This document shows, one piece after another, positions 3,002 through 20,938 of a stretch of DNA of 64,000 nt. Every line of letters starts with the position of its first letter. The first letter of the stretch is position 1. The notes beneath the pieces are model-generated. The model searched no databases. It saw nothing but the letters and a program-made list of their open reading frames with translations, and was not told the origin of the DNA. Source of the stretch: a virus; the IMG/VR virus record IMGVR_UViG_3300036398_002324; one strand, 5' to 3'. The translations under genes and the position numbers were made by a program.

Positions 3002-3169
3002 ATGGATCAAATTGATAAAATTATGGCGTTTGAATCAGGTGAACTAGACTTTGATGCTACGGTAGAATTGTTTCAAGATTTGATTGATTCGGGTCTGGCG
3101 TGGCAATTGCAAGGTTCGTATGGTCGTATGGCAAATTCTCTGATTGAGAATGGTTATTGTGAGCGATAA
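3002..3169 (+). CDS. hypothetical protein
   Basis: GGAGG SD then ATG at 3002; FQDLIDSGLAWQLQGSYGR motif. Confidence 0.7.
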   Translation: MDQIDKIMAFESGELDFDATVELFQDLIDSGLAWQLQGSYGRMANSLIENGYCER

Positions 3170-3170
3170 A

Positions 3171-3563
3171 ATGAGTGAGCCAAGAATCGTATCAAATCGA
3201 ATTCGTACTCCTGATGGTACGATTCTTGAATCCATGCATCGGCATGATTATGTAACTTATATTGATACAAATGGACTCGAATACATGGTTGATGGCGGCT
3301 TGGATTACCTGCGCCGTAATGTACATGATGAAGCACCCGCTGAAGAATTATCGGTATATTCCAGTGAATCGCACGATGTAATTCGTGAAGCATTCAAGTG
3401 GGGAACACGTGGCAAAGATGGTAGACAGCCTTTGACATATGTACCGCTGAAAGACTTGACAACAGACCACATTGTGGCTATACTTGAAACTCAAGATCAT
3501 ATTCAGCAATATATCAGAAATATTTTTTTGGATGAGATGATTTTTAGAACAAAAAATGTATAA
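3171..3563 (+). CDS. conserved phage hypothetical protein
   Basis: SMHRHDYV..MVDGGLDYLRR..WGTRGKDG motifs. Confidence 0.7.
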   Translation: MSEPRIVSNRIRTPDGTILESMHRHDYVTYIDTNGLEYMVDGGLDYLRRNVHDEAPAEELSVYSSESHDVIREAFKWGTRGKDGRQPLTYVPLKDLTTDHIVAILETQDHIQQYIRNIFLDEMIFRTKNV

Positions 3564-3566
3564 ATA
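3559..3566 (+). promoter_or_regulatory. T4-type late promoter TATAAATA
   Basis: exact consensus; predicted +1 near 3572, the A of the leader ATG. Confidence 0.7.
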
Positions 3567-3571
3567 AGATT

Positions 3572-3667
3572 ATGAACAAACATATACACAATACGAAGCC
3601 CTGCCAAGAGTATCGCACATTTAGCGATAATGGATCATGGGCGATTACGTTGGGAGTTTGTGTATAG
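3572..3667 (+). CDS. putative attenuator leader peptide containing all 20 amino acids (MNKHIHNTKPCQEYRTFSDNGSWAITLGVCV)
   Basis: 31 codons, 28 distinct; no SD; last codons are the antiterminator 5' strand; not in ORF track. Confidence 0.7.
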   Translation: MNKHIHNTKPCQEYRTFSDNGSWAITLGVCV

Positions 3668-3703
3668 AAGTTAGTCTGTAGCATAAGATTACACAAACCC
3701 CGA
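3650..3703 (+). promoter_or_regulatory. antiterminator helix
   Basis: TTGGG(A)GTTTGTGTA 3650-3664 pairs with TACACAAACCCCGA 3690-3703, sequestering the terminator 5' arm. Confidence 0.7.
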
Positions 3704-3729
3704 AGCCCAAAAAGTTTCGGGGTTTTTTT
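3695..3729 (+). terminator. intrinsic terminator (attenuator) immediately before tRNA-Pro
   Basis: CCCCGAAGC / GTTTCGGGG stem, 7-nt loop, T7 tract 3723-3729. Confidence 0.85.
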
Positions 3730-3731
3730 AT

Positions 3732-3805
3732 CTCGGTGTGGTGAAATGGTATCATGCGTGGTTTGGGACCATGCGGCGAAAGTTCGATTCTTTCCACCGA
3801 GACCA
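3732..3805 (+). tRNA. tRNA-Pro(TGG)
   Basis: CTCGGTG/CACCGAG acceptor, anticodon TGG, GTTCGA, encoded CCA. Confidence 0.95.
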
Positions 3806-3811
3806 GAATAA

Positions 3812-3869
3812 TGTGTTGTAAAACAACAACACAAAAATGCTTGACAGTTTGGCGAAATATCTTTATAAT
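3812..3869 (+). promoter_or_regulatory. perfect sigma70 promoter for the tRNA array with upstream inverted repeat
   Basis: TTGACA 3841-3846, 17 nt, TATAAT 3864-3869; TGTGTTG-N8-CAACACA 3812-3833. Confidence 0.85.
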
Positions 3870-3890
3870 CGTTTCTGTTGAGTGATTGAA

Positions 3891-3902
3891 GTTCTTTAAA
3901 AA
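3891..3902 (+). promoter_or_regulatory. boxA-like antitermination site
   Basis: GTTCTTTAAAAA just downstream of the promoter, resembling rrn boxA. Confidence 0.55.
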
Positions 3903-3914
3903 GTGTGAATCAAA

Positions 3915-4004
3915 ACAGGTGTGAGCGACCTGTCTCTGAAAAGAGTTGAGCAAGGGTTTGATGCAGTAATGACTTCGGCATCATGTAATAGTCTGTTCCT
4001 TGTT
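3915..4004 (+). ncRNA. candidate structured RNA in tRNA-operon leader
   Basis: ACAGGT/ACCTGT, CTCT-GAAA-AGAG, AGCAAGGG/TCCTTGTT enclosing TGATGC/GCATCA. Confidence 0.4.
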
Positions 4005-4026
4005 AGTTTGCGAATTTTAGTTTTAT

Positions 4027-4102
4027 GCACCGTTCGTCTATCTGGTTAGGACAACGCCCTTTCAAGGCGTAAAGACGGGTTCGAATCCCGTACGGTGTAC
4101 CA
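4027..4102 (+). tRNA. tRNA-Glu(TTC)
   Basis: cloverleaf, ACGCC-CTTTCAA-GGCGT, CCA. Confidence 0.95.
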
Positions 4103-4154
4103 AACTTTTAAAAAGGAGAGTCCACATGGACAGTGACAAGAGTAGTAAGATGAA

Positions 4155-4230
4155 GGGGCTATAGTCAAACGGTTAAGACAGCGGACTTTTAATCCGTCAG
4201 GTCAGGGTTCGAATCCCTGTGGCCCCACCA
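4155..4230 (+). tRNA. tRNA-Lys(TTT)
   Basis: cloverleaf, GCGGA-CTTTTAA-TCCGT, CCA. Confidence 0.95.
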
Positions 4231-4316
4231 TATAAAAACACATTCAAACACATGATGACGCCCGGGGTTATGGAATGTTTTACGACACTCCAAGAATGTG
4301 TTTCTATATGGTTTGT

Positions 4317-4390
4317 TGGGATATAGTGTAATGGCAGCACCGCAGACTTTGACTCTGTTAGTCTAGGTTCAAATCCTAGTATCCCTGCCA
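4317..4390 (+). tRNA. tRNA-Gln(TTG)
   Basis: cloverleaf, GCAGA-CTTTGAC-TCTGT, CCA. Confidence 0.93.
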
Positions 4391-4399
4391 AAATATTAT

Positions 4400-4477
4400 G
4401 GCACTTTAGCATAGCTGGCCTAATGCGCTGCCCTGTCACGGCAGAGATCACGGGTTCGAATCCCGTAAGTGTCGCCA
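4400..4477 (+). tRNA. tRNA-Asp(GTC)
   Basis: cloverleaf, CTGCC-CTGTCAC-GGCAG, CCA. Confidence 0.95.
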
Positions 4478-4486
4478 AAGTTTTAT

Positions 4487-4561
4487 TGCTCGGTAGCACA
4501 GCGGTAGTGCAGTTGACTGTTAATCAATTTGTCGTTGGTTCGATCCCAACCCGAGCAGCCA
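4487..4561 (+). tRNA. tRNA-Asn(GTT)
   Basis: cloverleaf, GTTGA-CTGTTAA-TCAAT, CCA. Confidence 0.95.
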
Positions 4562-4563
4562 AG

Positions 4564-4755
4564 TTCCGGTTTCTACTTACCTGAAAGTAGCGGGTGTCAC
4601 ACGTTAGTTAGACCGGTTGGCTAGGCTACCGTTAGCGCAATGCAGAGCAGAGCACCTAGATATCCGGACACAACCGGTAGCACGATACGCTGAAACAAAT
4701 GTGGACAGGGTAAAAACTCAGCATAGGGGCGATGACTGGAAATCACGTAGCCTAA
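4564..4755 (+). ncRNA. candidate pseudoknotted ncRNA
   Basis: non-coding, GC-elevated; crossing 8-bp helices 4612-4619/4671-4678 and 4622-4629/4747-4754. Confidence 0.5.
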
Positions 4756-4758
4756 GCA

Positions 4759-4888
4759 ATATTAGTTTTGCAGTTTGTAAGCCATGGGCTTGATCATGCC
4801 TGAGTAACTATGTCTATAAACGGTAAAGAAAGTCCTGCAGGCTACTCCGTTGAAACATAGCAAATAGTGCAGACTGCAAAACTAATAT
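4759..4888 (+). ncRNA. candidate ncRNA closed by a 21-bp terminal stem
   Basis: ATATTAGTTTTGCAGTTTGTA / TGCAGACTGCAAAACTAATAT with inner helices. Confidence 0.55.
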
Positions 4889-4973
4889 GGGTTGGAAGCA
4901 TCAATGGTGATGCAGTGGACTGTAAATCCGCCGTCTTCGGGCACGACTGGTTCGATCCCAGTACAACCCACCA
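4889..4973 (+). tRNA. tRNA-Tyr(GTA)
   Basis: anticodon GTA, long variable arm, CCA. Confidence 0.93.
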
Positions 4974-4979
4974 TATTTT

Positions 4980-5054
4980 CGGTCTTTAGTAAAATGGATA
5001 TTACGGATGGCTACGGACCATCAAGTGGGAGTTCGATTCTCTCAGGACCGGCCA
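4980..5054 (+). tRNA. tRNA-Arg(ACG)
   Basis: GATGG-CTACGGA-CCATC, CCA. Confidence 0.93.
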
Positions 5055-5055
5055 A

Positions 5056-5130
5056 GGGGGATTGGTATAGTTGGGAACACATCAGATTTGCATTCTGAAG
5101 TAATCGGTTCGAATCCGATATCCTCCACCA
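5056..5130 (+). tRNA. tRNA-Ala(TGC)
   Basis: G3.U70 pair, anticodon TGC, CCA. Confidence 0.95.
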
Positions 5131-5137
5131 TAGTTTT

Positions 5138-5211
5138 GCCCGTTTAGTTAAATGGTATAACAGTTGATTTGTAATCATCTATTGGCAGTTCGATTCTGTC
5201 AACGGGCACCA
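5138..5211 (+). tRNA. tRNA-Thr(TGT)
   Basis: GCCCGTT/AACGGGC, anticodon TGT, CCA. Confidence 0.93.
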
Positions 5212-5229
5212 ATATTATAGTTAAACATT

Positions 5230-5856
5230 ATGATTAAATTTAATGTAACTCCTATTTTTCCTAGACCGTTCGCTGAATACACGGTTGATGAAAATATGGA
5301 TAATTTTTTTGAAGTCGTTAAAAATTTGAAGTATATTTCTCACAAGAATACATACTCAAATATTGAAACGACAGAAGATAAACACATATTAGATTCGTTG
5401 CCTGAAGTAAAAGAAATCTTTAAAAAGTATTTCTATCATTTCAAAAATGAGTTTTTGCATTTTAATGATATAGAGTTTGACATTACCACTTCATGGGCAA
5501 CTAAAACACAAAAAGGTGGTTTTAGCGCATCACACGCACATTACAATAGTTTTTATTCTGGCGTGTATTATTTTGAATCGATGCCCGAAGAGGGTGCTGA
5601 TGTTATTTTTGAGCGGCCTGAAGAAGTAAGTTCATTTCTTATTCAGCCCAATGAAATAGTAAATGATGTGACAACGAATTTTTGTTTTTATAAACCTGTT
5701 AAAAATACTTTGATATTTTTTCCAAGTTTTCTAAAACATAGAGTAGCGTTACATGAAATTGATGACATTCGGTATTCGTTGGCATTCAATGTTATTCCTG
5801 TTGGAAAATTTGGGTTTCAAGATTCAACTTTGAATGTGCGACTTAATAAGAATTAA
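5230..5856 (+). CDS. putative 2OG-Fe(II) oxygenase (TIGR02466-like)
   Basis: SWA..HAHYNSFYSGVYY..LIFFPSFLKHRV..RYSLAFN motifs. Confidence 0.8.
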   Translation: MIKFNVTPIFPRPFAEYTVDENMDNFFEVVKNLKYISHKNTYSNIETTEDKHILDSLPEVKEIFKKYFYHFKNEFLHFNDIEFDITTSWATKTQKGGFSASHAHYNSFYSGVYYFESMPEEGADVIFERPEEVSSFLIQPNEIVNDVTTNFCFYKPVKNTLIFFPSFLKHRVALHEIDDIRYSLAFNVIPVGKFGFQDSTLNVRLNKN

Positions 5857-5862
5857 ATTTAT

Positions 5863-5939
5863 AGCGGATTAGGGAAGTGGTCGTTCCCGCCGGTCTCATA
5901 AGCCGGAGGTCGCAGGTTCGAATCCTGCATCCGCAACCA
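5863..5939 (+). tRNA. tRNA-Met(CAT), probably initiator
   Basis: anticodon CAT, mismatched 1:72 pair, GC-rich anticodon stem, CCA. Confidence 0.85.
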
Positions 5940-5961
5940 GTTTTTTATTTACGGGTGAAAC

Positions 5962-6429
5962 ATGAAAAAAGAAATTGACATACATGAAGTGGCTGCATTT
6001 CTTGACACATGCGGTCCCGATACGAAAGTTTACATTGGTGCAGACAGTGAACGTTTTCAAATAAATGGTGAATGGTTTGCTGATTATATTCTAGCGGTTG
6101 TTGTTCATATCGATGGTCGGCACGGTTGCAAGATTTTTGGTTGTGTTCAGCGTGAACGTGATTACGAACAAAAGAAAAATCGCCCACGTATGCGTTTGAT
6201 GACAGAAGTTTATAAAGTTTCGGAATTGTATTTAAAACTTTATGATGCAATACCACATGATATTGAAGTGCATTTAGATATTAATCCAAGTGAGATGCAC
6301 GGCAGTTCATGTGTAGTAAACGAAGCAATTGGTTATATCAAAGGTACATGTAATGTTGTACCGCTTGTGAAACCAAAAGCTTTTGCAGCAAGTTATGCGG
6401 CAGATAGATTTAAAAGTATTGCTGCTTAA
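5962..6429 (+). CDS. RNase H-like YkuK (DUF458) family protein
   Basis: VYIGADS, RLMTEVYK, IEVHLDIN, AASYAAD motifs. Confidence 0.8.
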   Translation: MKKEIDIHEVAAFLDTCGPDTKVYIGADSERFQINGEWFADYILAVVVHIDGRHGCKIFGCVQRERDYEQKKNRPRMRLMTEVYKVSELYLKLYDAIPHDIEVHLDINPSEMHGSSCVVNEAIGYIKGTCNVVPLVKPKAFAASYAADRFKSIAA

Positions 6430-6433
6430 AAAT

Positions 6434-6507
6434 CTCGGTGTGATGTAATGGTAGCATCGCAGTCTCCAAAACTGTTCGTTGCGGTTCAAGTCCGTACACC
6501 GAGGCCA
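6434..6507 (+). tRNA. tRNA-Trp(CCA)
   Basis: GCAGT-CTCCAAA-ACTGT, CCA. Confidence 0.93.
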
Positions 6508-6509
6508 GT

Positions 6510-6585
6510 GGTGTCTATAGTGTAGTGGTCTGCACGAATGTCTGTGGAACATTCAGTATGAGTTCAATCCTCATTAGACACCCCA
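6510..6585 (+). tRNA. tRNA-His(GTG)
   Basis: G-1:C73 signature, anticodon GTG, CCA. Confidence 0.93.
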
Positions 6586-6587
6586 AT

Positions 6588-6663
6588 GGTGCTTTAGCTG
6601 ATGTGGTCATAGCGGCGGTTTGAAGAGCCGTTGAAGTTGGTTCGATTCCAACAGGCACCACCA
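6588..6663 (+). tRNA. tRNA-Phe(GAA)
   Basis: GCGGT-TTGAAGA-GCCGT, CCA. Confidence 0.92.
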
Positions 6664-6664
6664 T

Positions 6665-6738
6665 TGTCCTGTAGTTAAATGGTATAACTGTCGATTGATA
6701 ATCGACCATTACAAGTTCAATTCTTGTCGGGACAACCA
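6665..6738 (+). tRNA. tRNA-Ile(GAT)
   Basis: GTCGA-TTGATAA-TCGAC, CCA. Confidence 0.93.
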
Positions 6739-6739
6739 A

Positions 6740-6814
6740 GGTAATGTAGCATAACGGTAGTGCGCCTCCTTCATACGGAGTCAAGTGTAAGTTCGATTCT
6801 TACCATTACCACCA
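6740..6814 (+). tRNA. tRNA with CAT anticodon (Ile2/lysidine or elongator Met)
   Basis: GGTAATG/CATTACC acceptor, loop TTCATAC, CCA; identity unresolved. Confidence 0.85.
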
Positions 6815-6816
6815 AT

Positions 6817-6893
6817 GCCCCTTTGACGGAACTGGTATACGTGTATGTCTTAGGAACATAATTTTGAGGGTTCGAATCCCTTGGGGGGCACCA
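6817..6893 (+). tRNA. tRNA-Leu(TAG), lacking the long variable arm
   Basis: TATGT-CTTAGGA-ACATA; Leu-type D loop GGTATAC; 5-nt variable loop; CCA. Confidence 0.88.
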
Positions 6894-6901
6894 AATTAAA
6901 C

Positions 6902-6976
6902 GCATCGTTAGTTCAGCGGTAGAATCCCTGCCTTACAAGCAGGTTGTCGTTGGTTCGAATCCAGCACGATGCACCA
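6902..6976 (+). tRNA. tRNA-Val(TAC)
   Basis: CCTGC-CTTACAA-GCAGG, CCA. Confidence 0.95.
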
Positions 6977-6982
6977 AACAAC

Positions 6983-7060
6983 GGTAAGGTGGCTGAGTGG
7001 TCCAAAGCAACAGTCTGCAAAACTGTAAAACCATCGGTTCAAATCCGATCCTTACCTCCA
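6983..7060 (+). tRNA. tRNA-Cys(GCA)
   Basis: anticodon GCA, U73 discriminator, CCA. Confidence 0.93.
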
Positions 7061-7064
7061 GAAT

Positions 7065-7154
7065 GGAAACGTGGCCGAGTGGTTTAAGGCTCTAGTCTTG
7101 AAAACTAGCGATTCAGAAATGGATCCGTGAGTTCGAATCTCACCGTTTCCGCCA
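7065..7154 (+). tRNA. tRNA-Ser(TGA)
   Basis: anticodon TGA, long variable arm, G73, CCA. Confidence 0.95.
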
Positions 7155-7159
7155 AACAT

Positions 7160-7246
7160 GGAGAGTTGGCAGAGTGGTAATGCACCGGATTGCTAATCCG
7201 CCGTTTCGAAAGAGGCGCACAGGTTCGAATCCTGTACTCTCCGCCA
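7160..7246 (+). tRNA. tRNA-Ser(GCT)
   Basis: anticodon GCT, long variable arm, G73, CCA. Confidence 0.95.
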
Positions 7247-7271
7247 TTTTTGGTAATGAAAATCGAAAATA

Positions 7272-7300
7272 TTGACAAAAATCACTTTTTCAGTCATAAT
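7272..7300 (+). promoter_or_regulatory. sigma70-type promoter
   Basis: TTGACA-17-CATAAT, ATG at 7311. Confidence 0.65.
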
Positions 7301-7310
7301 CACTACTATC

Positions 7311-7472
7311 ATGAATACGAAAAAATCAAAAATTTCTTCAAAACCACGAAATTTTGTCGCTAAGGATCTCTTTTCGGCAAAATATCGCATGAAAGTTGAG
7401 AAATCACCCGCAGTATTTTATTCACGTGCAGTCGAAAAACAAAATTTTAGGAAAAATTATGACGGATTCTAG
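7311..7472 (+). CDS. small basic protein, ArfA (ribosome rescue factor)-like
   Basis: RNFVAKDLFSAKYRMKVEKS..YSR resembles the ArfA N..A.LL..P.FR.RVEK..Y.R pattern; lacks KGKGS. Confidence 0.5.
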   Translation: MNTKKSKISSKPRNFVAKDLFSAKYRMKVEKSPAVFYSRAVEKQNFRKNYDGF

Positions 7473-7875
7473 TAAAAACGAAGAAAATGATGATATTACT
7501 GAAAATTATGACGGTTTTTACTTTATTCCAACAGAGACTAAAGATGAATCAAGCTACAAATTAGCATTTTTCACGTTTAAAGATGAAATGGCAAATGCAA
7601 AACCGATAGAAACGTCTGAAATGGGCGATACATTTCATATTGCATTCTTCAAACCCGATGAAAATGACCTTCCTGTGTTCGATGATTCGTTTGAAGCTAT
7701 TTTGACTGACCCAATCGTGTATATTAACAATTTAGTTGGCACTGGTATGTCTGGCTGCATACTCAGAAAGACTGAAAAATCGGAAGTTTGGTTTCAAGAG
7801 TATTTGGATTATATAACTGGCGGCGAATTTGAAACAAAAGTTCGTGAAATTGCAAAAAATATAGCGGAGAACTAA
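7459..7875 (+). CDS. acidic hypothetical protein
   Basis: AGGA upstream of ATG 7459. Confidence 0.65.
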   Translation: MTDSSKNEENDDITENYDGFYFIPTETKDESSYKLAFFTFKDEMANAKPIETSEMGDTFHIAFFKPDENDLPVFDDSFEAILTDPIVYINNLVGTGMSGCILRKTEKSEVWFQEYLDYITGGEFETKVREIAKNIAEN

Positions 7876-7876
7876 T

Positions 7877-8173
7877 ATGAATGTATTTTCTGGTGATAGT
7901 GATGATGCAAAAGCAGGTCGTGATTGGCTAAAAAGTTTGTTAGAAGAAAACACGGTAGAAGTTGTGTTTACTAAAAAAGATGGCACTGAACGTGTGATGA
8001 ATTGTACATTGAAAGAAGATGTTCTGCCAACAGTACAAAAAGAAATTGAAGAAGATTCATTCACAAAGACAAAAGCAAAAGATGCACTTGCTGTTTGGGA
8101 TGTTGACGCAAGTGGTTGGCGTTCTTTTCGTTGGGACTCAATCAAGTCTGTTAATTTTTCATTGGGAGCATAA
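7877..8173 (+). CDS. WYL_2/DUF2693-like SH3-fold protein
   Basis: VFTKKDGTERVMNCTL..VWDVDASGWRSFRWD motif. Confidence 0.75.
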   Translation: MNVFSGDSDDAKAGRDWLKSLLEENTVEVVFTKKDGTERVMNCTLKEDVLPTVQKEIEEDSFTKTKAKDALAVWDVDASGWRSFRWDSIKSVNFSLGA

Positions 8174-8175
8174 TT

Positions 8176-8466
8176 ATGCCTAAGTATATCGTAGAACAGT
8201 TGTCTTGTTTTAGAAATGTTCATGTTGTTGAAGCAGAAACCGAACAAGAAGCAATTGCAATCTCAGAACAAGCCGATGATAACTGGCAAGAATGGCTTGG
8301 TTGTCTGAAAGTTGACGTAAATCATTTTTCCGATGAACGTATTGCATATTTTAAAGAAAAAGATTATTTTTGGAATGGCGTATCATACAAAGATGCTGAT
8401 GGCTATATCGGATATATACATCCGAGCGGTGAAAAAGTAGAACGTAAAGAAATTAAGATTAAATGA
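8176..8466 (+). CDS. hypothetical protein
   Basis: GGAG SD, in operon. Confidence 0.7.
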   Translation: MPKYIVEQLSCFRNVHVVEAETEQEAIAISEQADDNWQEWLGCLKVDVNHFSDERIAYFKEKDYFWNGVSYKDADGYIGYIHPSGEKVERKEIKIK

Positions 8467-8472
8467 AGCAAT

Positions 8473-8546
8473 GCGGGATTAGTTTAATGGTAAAACGTGA
8501 GCCTTCCAAGCTCCTGTTATCAGTTCGATTCTGATATCCCGCTCCA
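8473..8546 (+). tRNA. tRNA-Gly(TCC)
   Basis: GCGGGAT/ATCCCGC, anticodon TCC, U73, CCA. Confidence 0.93.
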
Positions 8547-8556
8547 AAGGACAATT

Positions 8557-8760
8557 ATGGAACCATCAAAGCACTGGACGCTAGAAGTACAACAACATGA
8601 AGATGGAGATTACTTCATTGAATTTCCTGATGATGTTCTTGCTGAAGCTAATTGGAAAGAAGGCGATGTGATTGAATGGATTGATAATAAAGATGGTTCT
8701 TGGACATTGCGTAAAAAATTAGATGATAATCATGAAAATACTGATGAATCTAAAGAGTAA
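8557..8760 (+). CDS. AbrB/MazE-like DNA-binding domain protein
   Basis: GDYFIEFPDDVLAEANWKEGDVIEW; AAGGA SD after tRNA-Gly. Confidence 0.65.
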   Translation: MEPSKHWTLEVQQHEDGDYFIEFPDDVLAEANWKEGDVIEWIDNKDGSWTLRKKLDDNHENTDESKE

Positions 8761-11771: not shown

Positions 11772-11869
11772 CGATGCGCGGTTATTACTACCGTAAATTT
11801 AAATTCCATTTGAAACTTACATTCTTATTTTTGTTCAAAGGTGTAGTTCTAGGAAAACACGTAAAATGA
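11768..11869 (+). CDS. small basic/hydrophobic peptide (33 aa, not in ORF track)
   Basis: ATGA overlaps at both ends, exactly bridging the flanking genes. Confidence 0.45.
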   Translation: MTMRGYYYRKFKFHLKLTFLFLFKGVVLGKHVK

Positions 11870-12714
11870 TAATTTTTGACTACAATCAAGTGGCAATCTC
11901 GTCACTTATGGAACAAATCGGTTCATCTAAAAAACCGGTTGAAGAAAATCTTGTTCGACATATGATATTGAATGTTATTCGGACATATGTAAAAAAATTC
12001 AAAGAAACTTATGGACCAGAAGTTGTGATTGCTTGTGATAATCGCAATTACTGGCGCCGTGAGTATTTTCCCCAATACAAAGCAAGTCGTAAGAAGAGCA
12101 GAGATGCATCTGGTCATGATTGGAATTCAATCTTTGATTGTTTGCATAAAATTAAAACTGAACTTAAAGAGCATTCACCATATAAAGTGATTGATGTGGA
12201 AACTGCTGAAGCCGACGATATTATTGCCACATTAACGATACTCAAATCAGCTAGTGAAAAGGTAATGATTCTTTCTTCGGATAAAGATTTTGCACAACTA
12301 CAGAAATATCCTAATGTGCAACAATATTCTCCCATACTAAAGAAGTTTATCAATGAACCTCTGCCTGCTGTTCAGTTGAAGCAGATGATTATTCGTGGTG
12401 ACAAGGGTGATGGTATTCCCAACATTCTGACACAAGATAATGTGTTTATTGAAGGCGGTCGTCAAAAGCCTATTACTGAAGCAAAGATTATTAACTGGCT
12501 GAATCAAAAGCCAGAAGAATTTTGTAATGACGATATGCTTCGCAACTACAAACGAAATGAACTTCTGATTGATTTGACCAAAGTTCCAGAAACTCTTCAA
12601 AAAAGTATTATAGATACATATGAATCTTCTGCTGGTCATCCAAAACAGAAGTTTATGAATTATATGATTGCAAACAAACTAAAAAATTTACTTGAGGTAG
12701 TCCATGAGTTCTGA
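11866..12714 (+). CDS. rnh: T4-type RNase H / 5'-3' exonuclease
   Basis: YWRREYFPQYKASR, EADDII, SSDKDFAQL, GDKGDGIPN. Confidence 0.92.
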   Translation: MIIFDYNQVAISSLMEQIGSSKKPVEENLVRHMILNVIRTYVKKFKETYGPEVVIACDNRNYWRREYFPQYKASRKKSRDASGHDWNSIFDCLHKIKTELKEHSPYKVIDVETAEADDIIATLTILKSASEKVMILSSDKDFAQLQKYPNVQQYSPILKKFINEPLPAVQLKQMIIRGDKGDGIPNILTQDNVFIEGGRQKPITEAKIINWLNQKPEEFCNDDMLRNYKRNELLIDLTKVPETLQKSIIDTYESSAGHPKQKFMNYMIANKLKNLLEVVHEF

Positions 12715-20447: not shown

Positions 20448-20618
20448 ATGGAAATTAGTGAAAAAGAATACGATGAAAAATTGGATGAATATCTGAGAGA
20501 ACAAGGACCAAATCTAGGTGAAACATTTTTTGGCGCATGGGGTTGGTATGCAACAAAACGAAATGAGTTTAATGCGATATTGAAAGAGGAAGGAATTGTT
20601 GTAATCCCTTCAAAGTGA
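20448..20618 (+). CDS. small hypothetical protein (56 aa)
   Basis: GGAG SD; MEISEKEYDEK... Confidence 0.55.
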   Translation: MEISEKEYDEKLDEYLREQGPNLGETFFGAWGWYATKRNEFNAILKEEGIVVIPSK

Positions 20619-20938
20619 AGGCATTCTGGACGAGGGTTCGATTCCCTCCATCTCCACCAGAAACATTCTTGTCCATGGAGTTGGGAACGGACAGATAAAC
20701 CGTGAGAGTGTTTCTCATGGGGATGACCTGGTTTCGACAGGGTGAGATAGCAGAGAAGGCAACACGAAAGGCGACGGACGTAATCCGAGCAAATAATATA
20801 ACCGCAAATGACGAGTTATACGCTCTAGCAGCCTAAATTGCTAGATGAGGTTTCGCCGACTGTCCTTATTATCCAATCAGTCGGCATCAATTATGGGTTT
20901 GGTGGCATCACCCGAACAAGAGTTCAAAAAACCACCAC
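20617..20938 (+). ncRNA. ssrA: circularly permuted (two-piece) tmRNA
   Basis: T-arm plus CATCTCC-A-CCA (to 20659) precedes GGGGATG..TTCGAC (from 20719) with G3.U70; tag ANDELYALAA* 20804-20836; downstream pseudoknots; ends approximate. Confidence 0.9.

Follow-up and report, generated by a model that had tools for sequence, protein, structure and literature searches.

A candidate leader-peptide attenuator with an all-amino-acid test ORF before the tRNA gene array of a T4-like lake phage

Phage tRNA clusters are known from T4 (eight tRNAs), KVP40, T5 and huge phages (up to ~60), and the presence of tRNA genes in phages is commonly attributed to codon usage or to evasion of host tRNA nucleases. 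Minimal tRNA sets that depend on superwobble are known from Mollicutes and plastids. Among regulatory systems, the closest are the leader-peptide attenuators of amino-acid operons (trpL, hisL, leuL, thrL, pheL and the multivalent ilvGMEDA and thr leaders) and of pheST, with which the locus described here shares a short open reading frame (ORF), three overlapping RNA segments and a terminator placed before the regulated genes. We know of no description of attenuator control of phage tRNA clusters, and a literature search returned no published description of such a leader-gated tRNA array. Here we describe a 31-codon leader ORF, containing all 20 amino acids, that precedes a 22-gene tRNA array in IMG/VR virus record IMGVR_UViG_3300036398_002324. 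The stretch analysed, 64,000 nucleotides in all and referred to below as the window, derives from an uncultured, T4-like, freshwater (lake) phage. The locus is probably (we put it at roughly 0.6) a trp-style leader-peptide transcription attenuator whose all-20 test ORF matches the array at the level of amino acids.

A T4-type RNase H gene, a T4-like trait, is present at 11866-12714 of the window, and the nearest cultured phage is Pelagibacter phage HTVC008M, a baseplate protein of which is 34% identical. Megablast of positions 3100-8600 against GenBank revealed no close phage, the only matches being 42-nt stretches of tRNA-Asp. Relatives were retrieved from IMG/VR and JGI metagenomes by means of the upstream gene (DUF7695) and the DNA pattern of the leader core; the retrieved set comprised 48 loci, 29 distinct leader DNA versions and 21 distinct 31-residue peptides. 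Among the genomes compared, L012 is a more distant relative with a complete 170-kb genome, and G009 is a member of the window's own subclade.

The leader ORF and leaders of other clades

The elements of the leader region, with strand in brackets, are:

3559-3566 (+), T4-type late-promoter-like motif TATAAATA, 5 nt before the leader ATG, recognised by motif rarity and kept spacing
3572-3667 (+), leader ORF, 31 codons plus TAG, all 20 amino acids, from the ORF list, composition and conservation
3584-3591 (+), segment 1 (ATACACAA), codons 5-7, predicted to pair with segment 2 as anti-antiterminator, 86% of cells paired
3611-3629 (+), internal hairpin TATCGC-ACATTTA-GCGATA, codons 14-19, from the minimum free energy (MFE) fold and conservation
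3652-3667 (+), segment 2 (GGGAGTTTGTGTATAG), last codons and stop, predicted to pair with segment 1 or 3, invariant core
3690-3701 (+), segment 3 (TACACAAACCCC), antiterminator partner, overlapping the 5' arm of the terminator, 85% of cells paired
3695-3730 (+), intrinsic terminator with a 12-bp stem, 7-nt loop and T-tract, ending 1-2 nt before tRNA-Pro, 97% of cells paired
3841-3869 (+), sigma70-type promoter TTGACA-17-TATAAT, after tRNA-Pro, 12 of 12 consensus matches

A random 31-mer drawn with the window's amino-acid frequencies would contain all 20 amino acids with a probability of 1.6e-4, and of the 404 short ORFs (25-40 residues) in the window the leader was the only one to do so. Both Ser boxes, ATA as well as ATT, and CGC are found among its codons. 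The frame is kept in the 29 DNA versions, in which indels are of 3 and 6 nt only, and synonymous third-position changes occur at no fewer than 12 codons: codon 8 appears as all four ACN triplets, codon 21 as GGA, GGC or GGT, and K9, A24, P25, V26, R15 and D19 vary likewise. The kept frame together with the synonymous variation argues that the leader ORF is translated and conserved. All 20 amino acids were present in 16 of the 21 distinct peptides, as compared to 8.5±1.9 in column shuffles, where 0 of 20,000 reached 16; the common descent of the leaders inflates this test. At codons 10, 12 and 13 the residues E, P and Q occur in changed order, which would fit selection on content over order. 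The leader is also enriched in codons rare in the phage (ACG twice, CCC, CGC, AGC and GCG), its codon adaptation index-like score of 0.52 being in the lowest 3.6% of 30-codon gene windows; either RNA structure or slow decoding may be the cause of this enrichment. Searching cultured phages by tblastn with three leader peptides gave chance matches or none.

Leaders of this composition were found in other clades as well. The 25 tRNAs of L012 form a single array elsewhere in its genome, and directly before the first of them we found TATAAATA-N5-ATG, a different 32-residue ORF with all 20 amino acids, and an antiterminator and terminator of its own. A scan of IMG/VR for TATAWATA-N5-ATGAACAAA returned at least 117 loci; among the matches listed, L170/L184, L183, L206 and L208 have further leaders, 31-42 residues long and with 19-20 amino acids. 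At least four other, divergent phage clades thus have tRNA arrays preceded by unrelated-looking leaders with 19-20 amino acids. Of the relatives without an adjacent array, the three closest (L011-L013) have no such ORF at the corresponding site. The 270-kb relative L047, which shares the upstream gene, has tRNA blocks with plain sigma70-type promoters and no leader; therefore, the element is not universal.

Alternatively, the ORF might encode a small functional peptide and the hairpin be a plain terminator of a late unit, the all-20 content and the location being coincidental. The core YRTFSDNGSWA and the end VCV are indeed kept as sequence within the clade, but this core partly coincides with an RNA stem, and the leaders of other clades, although almost without similarity as peptides, share composition, promoter spacing and the three-segment RNA. 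An all-20 random 31-mer, arising once per ~6000 trials, is possible in a large scan; however, tRNAs followed within 700 nt in all six cases where a short ORF had 18 or more different amino acids, as compared to one of 100 other matches to the promoter-ATG pattern, among the matches listed with enough flank. Although the array has a promoter of its own, tRNA-Pro would then be left without one. We consider this explanation unlikely.

RNA segments, promoters and the proposed attenuation

Segment 1 (3584-3591) is complementary to 3657-3664 of segment 2, and the pairing of segments 2 and 3 holds in 85% of cells, as compared to 23-50% for shifted positions of the partner. Covariation is scarce because segment 2 hardly varies. 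At codon 27, the third base is G in every version while the amino acid varies. In L102, segment 2 carries a single T-to-C change, and segments 1 and 3 each have an A-to-G change that restores the pairing. The terminator has three pairs with compensatory changes across the 29 versions. L012 repeats the three-segment logic with different sequences, including a perfectly complementary 13-nt 2:3 pair and a segment 1 that fits its own segment 2. The fold energies calculated for the window, L003 and L012, respectively, were -22.7, -28.9 and -31.3 kcal/mol for 1:2, -18.3, -23.5 and -23.6 kcal/mol for 2:3, and -17.2, -14.9 and -12.3 kcal/mol for the terminator; stability thus follows the classical order 1:2 > 2:3 > 3:4 in three clades. 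The structure z-score was -3.75. The nucleotides of the internal hairpin are kept in 27 of the 29 versions, the variants being one U.G wobble and one mismatch, with no covariation; its stem fixes the CGC and AGC codons, and a role as a pause hairpin is possible. The sequence therefore holds the ORF, the terminator, the antiterminator and the anti-antiterminator helix of an attenuator, and the match to the products is at the amino-acid level only.

The same helices might work as a switch that no ribosome reads, answering a protein, a tRNA or polymerase speed, or serving the processing of the tRNA precursor, with the frame simply tolerated. Such a switch would agree with the strong structure score, the long invariant nucleotide runs and the want of a Shine-Dalgarno sequence, but it appears improbable, since the frame survives the 3-nt and 6-nt indels and third positions change synonymously at many codons, as with the four ACN triplets of codon 8; the all-20 content would have no meaning for purely RNA-based switching.

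Only two exact copies of TATAAATA occur in 64 kb, as compared to 6.4 expected by chance, and L012 and the window clade share the TATAWATA-N5-ATG spacing. NATAAATA motifs are found 4-29 nt before several long ORFs, including structural genes (33184, 39463, 46338, 19885 and 8766). The rarity of TATAAATA and the placement of NATAAATA fit use as a T4-type late promoter, which would be active at the leader and may give it a leaderless start. Beyond tRNA-Pro, the array would have an independent entry at the sigma70-type promoter (3841-3869); the equivalent promoter of L004, L014 and L010 is found after the terminator, upstream of the first tRNA. Because the window's promoter lies downstream of tRNA-Pro, this tRNA would be reached by read-through of the leader terminator only, and the attenuator would govern at most a late or supplementary share of expression. 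A palindrome, TGTGTTGTAAAACAACAACACA, is present at 3812-3833 between tRNA-Pro and the sigma70-type promoter, and similar GTTG...CAAC repeats precede the equivalent promoters in relatives; the palindrome may be an operator.

In the attenuation that we propose, the consensus sigma70-type promoter at 3841 would make most of the array early in infection. The late-type promoter, 5 nt upstream, would start a transcript through the 31-codon all-amino-acid ORF. A ribosome that reaches the stop codon would cover segment 2, the terminator would form, and late transcripts would end 1-2 nt before tRNA-Pro. A ribosome stalled at any hungry codon would instead leave segment 2 free to pair with segment 3, and the polymerase would continue into tRNA-Pro and the remaining array. 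Stalling was simulated by masking the footprint of the stalled ribosome and recomputing the equilibrium MFE fold. With the A site at codons 2-14 in L003, and at most of codons 2-26 in L012, the mask caused the antiterminator to form in place of the terminator. Leader and array might together act as a closed-loop supply controller for the whole translation alphabet, a suggestion to which we would give slightly less than even odds. Late in infection, with host tRNA synthesis stopped or host nucleases cutting tRNAs, a delay at any one of the 20 amino acids would open the terminator and release a complete replacement tRNA set.

Several points, besides the inflation of the column-shuffle test, weigh against an attenuator. 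In the window's own leader, the terminator was retained at each simulated stall position under equilibrium folding; therefore, the window's switch would have to be kinetic, and we keep a kinetic model for it on the strength of the relatives. Stalls at codons 15-26 fall between segments 1 and 2 and would block 1:2 pairing only by ribosome sterics, and Leu27 and both Val codons are part of segment 2, so that a ribosome halted there would be expected to promote termination. The leader ATG has no recognisable Shine-Dalgarno sequence before it, and five of the 21 distinct clade peptides are without one or two amino acids. The array's own strong promoter would serve most of it, so the share left to the attenuator would be limited, and the second tRNA cluster taken up below is known from relatives, not from this genome. 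Promoter use, leaderless translation, stalling and read-through are all steps that we infer.

The tRNA array and its relation to the leader codons

ARAGORN and Rfam together gave 22 tRNA genes on the + strand between 3732 and 8546. ARAGORN at default settings found 21 of them. Classes of CAT tRNA were assigned from sequence features.

3732-3805 (+), tRNA-Pro(TGG), between the terminator and the sigma70-type promoter
4027-4102 (+), tRNA-Glu(TTC)
4155-4230 (+), tRNA-Lys(TTT)
4317-4390 (+), tRNA-Gln(TTG)
4400-4477 (+), tRNA-Asp(GTC)
4487-4561 (+), tRNA-Asn(GTT)
4889-4973 (+), tRNA-Tyr(GTA), from Rfam, and from ARAGORN at a lower threshold
4980-5054 (+), tRNA-Arg(ACG)
5056-5130 (+), tRNA-Ala(TGC)
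5138-5211 (+), tRNA-Thr(TGT)
5863-5939 (+), CAT tRNA of class A, initiator-like
6434-6507 (+), tRNA-Trp(CCA)
6511-6585 (+), tRNA-His(GTG)
6588-6663 (+), tRNA-Phe(GAA)
6665-6738 (+), tRNA-Ile(GAT)
6740-6814 (+), CAT tRNA of class B, elongator Met by sequence comparison
6817-6893 (+), tRNA-Leu(TAG)
6902-6976 (+), tRNA-Val(TAC)
6983-7060 (+), tRNA-Cys(GCA)
7065-7154 (+), tRNA-Ser(TGA)
7160-7246 (+), tRNA-Ser(GCT)
8473-8546 (+), tRNA-Gly(TCC), the final tRNA of the array, set apart by three ORFs

All 22 genes end in an encoded CCA. The set covers the 20 amino acids with one tRNA each, the extras being a second Ser (GCT beside TGA) and a second CAT, just as the initial annotation had listed it. Each four-codon box is served by a single U34 tRNA and each two-codon box by one G34 or U34 tRNA; Arg(ACG), Ile(GAT), Trp, the initiator Met and the elongator Met make up the rest. 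Protein genes inside the array encode a 2OG-Fe(II) oxygenase (PF13759, 5230-5856), an RNase H-like protein (PF04308, 5962-6429) and a WYL_2 domain (7877-8173), and these products could act on tRNA or RNA. Elsewhere in the window, a permuted (two-piece) transfer-messenger RNA (tmRNA) gene lies at ~20546-20927 and specifies the tag peptide ANDELYALAA; the best-scoring model for it is betaproteobacterial, which may hint at the host group.

With generous wobble, the 22-gene array alone leaves TTA, TTG, AGA, AGG and CGG unreadable, and ATA too if there is no Ile2. These make up 5.8% of the codons in the window's genes when the CAT tRNA is taken as Ile2 and 7.6% when ATA is included. ARAGORN found no Leu(TAA) or Arg(TCT) within the 64-kb window, and in its long ORFs TTA accounts for 32% of Leu codons and AGA for 44% of Arg codons; both the tRNA and the codon counts agree with the initial annotation, which had remarked on this absence and suggested looking for the two tRNAs outside the window. 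In the whole records of relatives, Leu(TAA) and Arg(TCT) are present in a second small cluster, with an Ile2 tRNA between them in G001. In G001, G002 and G009 this cluster precedes the leader by 12-14 kb, and the window starts only 3.6 kb upstream of the leader. The array by itself is thus not self-sufficient in decoding, and the second cluster of the relatives fills the gap. The apparent presence of Arg(ACG) only is probably an artefact of the window edge, and array and second cluster together would constitute a near-minimal superwobble decoding set of ~25 tRNAs.

Three classes of CAT tRNA (A, B and C) were compared across clades against published identity criteria for initiator and Ile2 tRNAs (PMC1635315). 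The Ile2 acceptor-stem signature is G3, A3, C70 or T70, and C4:G69 with C5:G68 (PMC1635315). Class A (5863-5939) has an A1xA72 mismatch, C3:G70, G12:C23 and G29G30:C40C41, and is 68% identical to E. coli metV as compared to 58-60% for metT and ileX; by the cited criteria it is predicted to be of initiator type. A BLAST search of this tRNA against E. coli was uninformative, yielding T-arm similarity to tRNA-Arg only. Class C (L117:1501-1576 and others) has G3:C70, C4:G69 and U12:A23 and matches E. coli ileX/ileY over its full length at 74%, and is Ile2-like.

The initial annotation had noted that the leader samples both ATT and ATA, which it does, and had taken this to suggest that the CAT tRNA at 6740-6814 is Ile2. 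This class B tRNA has T3:A70, A4:T69 and A5:T68 at the Ile2 acceptor-stem positions and so does not carry the signature; C4:G69 and U12:A23, present both in the phage's own Ile(GAT) and in class C, are lacking. BLAST found no match for it in E. coli, and its identity is 56% to metT as compared to 46% to ileX. Against phages, BLAST gave partial, weak matches (E 0.05-0.2), mostly to T5-like "Met" tRNAs and one to a tRNA-Val, in which the Met annotation is a default and carries little weight. Orthologues of class B coexist with a separate Ile2-like CAT tRNA in G001, G004 and G006 and with Ile(TAT) in G003 and G005, which argues that 6740-6814 is an elongator Met tRNA. The Ile2 assignment was rejected on the three counts of signature, identity and coexistence. 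The Ile(TAT) tRNA, of 95 nt with an insertion of ~20 nt after the anticodon arm, is found at L264:3479-3573 and L266:4794-4888, where it replaces the Ile2-type CAT tRNA, and is an alternative means of reading ATA in two related phages. At the end of the array of L264, a 168-kb relative, ARAGORN also reported a tRNA with anticodon CTA (amber-suppressor type, labelled Pyl) from L264:5226 on.

A further explanation, that of the initial annotation, is that leader codons and array anticodons co-evolved one to one as a replacement kit for the host tRNA pool, with the CAT tRNA at 6740 reading ATA as Ile2 and CGC used on account of Arg(ACG) only. If 6740 is Met, two leader codons (ATA and TTG) are unreadable, and one if it is Ile2. 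The claim that every leader codon except TTG is readable requires four-way wobble for CCC as well as 6740 as Ile2; otherwise ATA is unreadable too. We redrew synonymous codons for the same leader peptide from the phage's own codon usage. The expected number of unreadable codons was 1.06 with CAT as Ile2 and 1.57 with CAT as Met, as compared to 1 and 2 observed (probability of as few or fewer, 0.72 and 0.84). The map of leader codons onto array anticodons is therefore at chance level, and the nearly one-to-one correspondence disappears against redrawn codons that are just as readable: any all-20 peptide will "map" in this way onto any set that has one tRNA for each amino acid. The excuse offered for TTG, that it lies in the constrained antiterminator strand, is weak, as codon 27 is invariant only at its third base (G in 29 of 29) and CTG would fit equally. 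CGC is used, as claimed, and window-clade leaders with CGC do stand before arrays with Arg(ACG) only, but CGC lies in the near-invariant stem that also fixes AGC, and therefore its use needs no tRNA explanation; relatives, moreover, carry Arg(TCT) upstream, and the leader of L012 uses CGC only despite Arg(TCT) in its array. Sampling of both Ser boxes, with Ser(GCT) and Ser(TGA) in the array, holds for the window and is seen in five of six leader types.

Comparison of relatives, in which a correlation between leader codons and anticodon inventory had been anticipated, pointed the same way. The only Leu tRNA has been lost from the arrays of L003, L007, L009 and L088, and their leaders retain the Leu codon CTA; L005 has lost tRNA-Phe and its leader retains Phe (TTT). 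The L005 leader is also without Leu and Gly, though Leu(TAG) and Gly(TCC) are in its array. In window-clade leaders Leu is encoded by CTA, CTT, TTA or TTG, and 10 of the 29 versions have TTA or TTG without Leu(TAA) in the array. Leader and array contents thus do not co-vary among relatives. With this result and the elongator-Met class of 6740-6814, the outcomes that the initial annotation itself had named as refuting its reading have been obtained, within the reach of the tools used. The sole positive hint comes from the long leaders of the L170, L183 and L206 clade, which use AGA, TTA and ATA and have Arg(TCT), Leu(TAA), and Ile(TAT) or Ile2 in the arrays downstream; these amount to just two or three independent contrasts, and AGA and TTA are what AT-rich codon usage would give anyway. 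Codon-by-anticodon co-evolution is accordingly quite unlikely, and the leader codons do not correspond, as regulatory codons, to particular anticodons. What stands of the kit is its coarse form. The match between leader and array arises because each covers every amino acid; a sensor-and-payload unit is a reasonable reading at that level, and the link between an all-amino-acid test peptide, as a putative attenuator, and the all-amino-acid array behind it is well supported by sequence comparison.

Comparison with known systems

If the attenuator reading is true, the virus would measure overall decoding capacity and respond with tRNA synthesis, a control logic not known to have been described for tRNA genes. 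The locus would then represent the extreme ("all 20") of a broader and so far undescribed class of phage tRNA blocks gated by leaders, and a compact natural sensor of aminoacyl-tRNA supply. The codon-by-anticodon replacement kit is neither needed nor supported for this, a negative result that matters too.

The phage leader resembles trp in the order of stabilities and in having the stop codon inside segment 2. Unlike the amino-acid operon attenuators, it would control tRNA genes rather than biosynthetic or synthetase genes. It has no run of a single residue, each of the 20 being present one to three times; its late-type promoter abuts the ATG, so that the mRNA may be leaderless; and a second, constitutive-looking promoter lies inside the regulated unit. 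As in T-box riboswitches, the state of the tRNA pool is proposed to be coupled to read-through of a terminator. However, there is no specifier loop and no T-box sequence, Rfam finds no T-box, and sensing would be through the speed of the ribosome.

As in other phage tRNA clusters, the tRNA genes are clustered with small ORFs between them in a T4-like genome, and the window's lineage has Leu(TAA), Ile2 and Arg(TCT), readers of A-ending codons, as does T4. In contrast to those clusters, the window's array needs no more than the minimum number of species to cover all 20 amino acids. The decoding set is similar to those of Mollicutes and plastids in having one U34 tRNA per four-codon box, three CAT tRNAs or their equivalent for the AUN box, and ~25-30 species in all; unlike them, it is borne by a virus, split into a 22-gene array and a cluster of 2-3 genes, and has CCA encoded in every gene.

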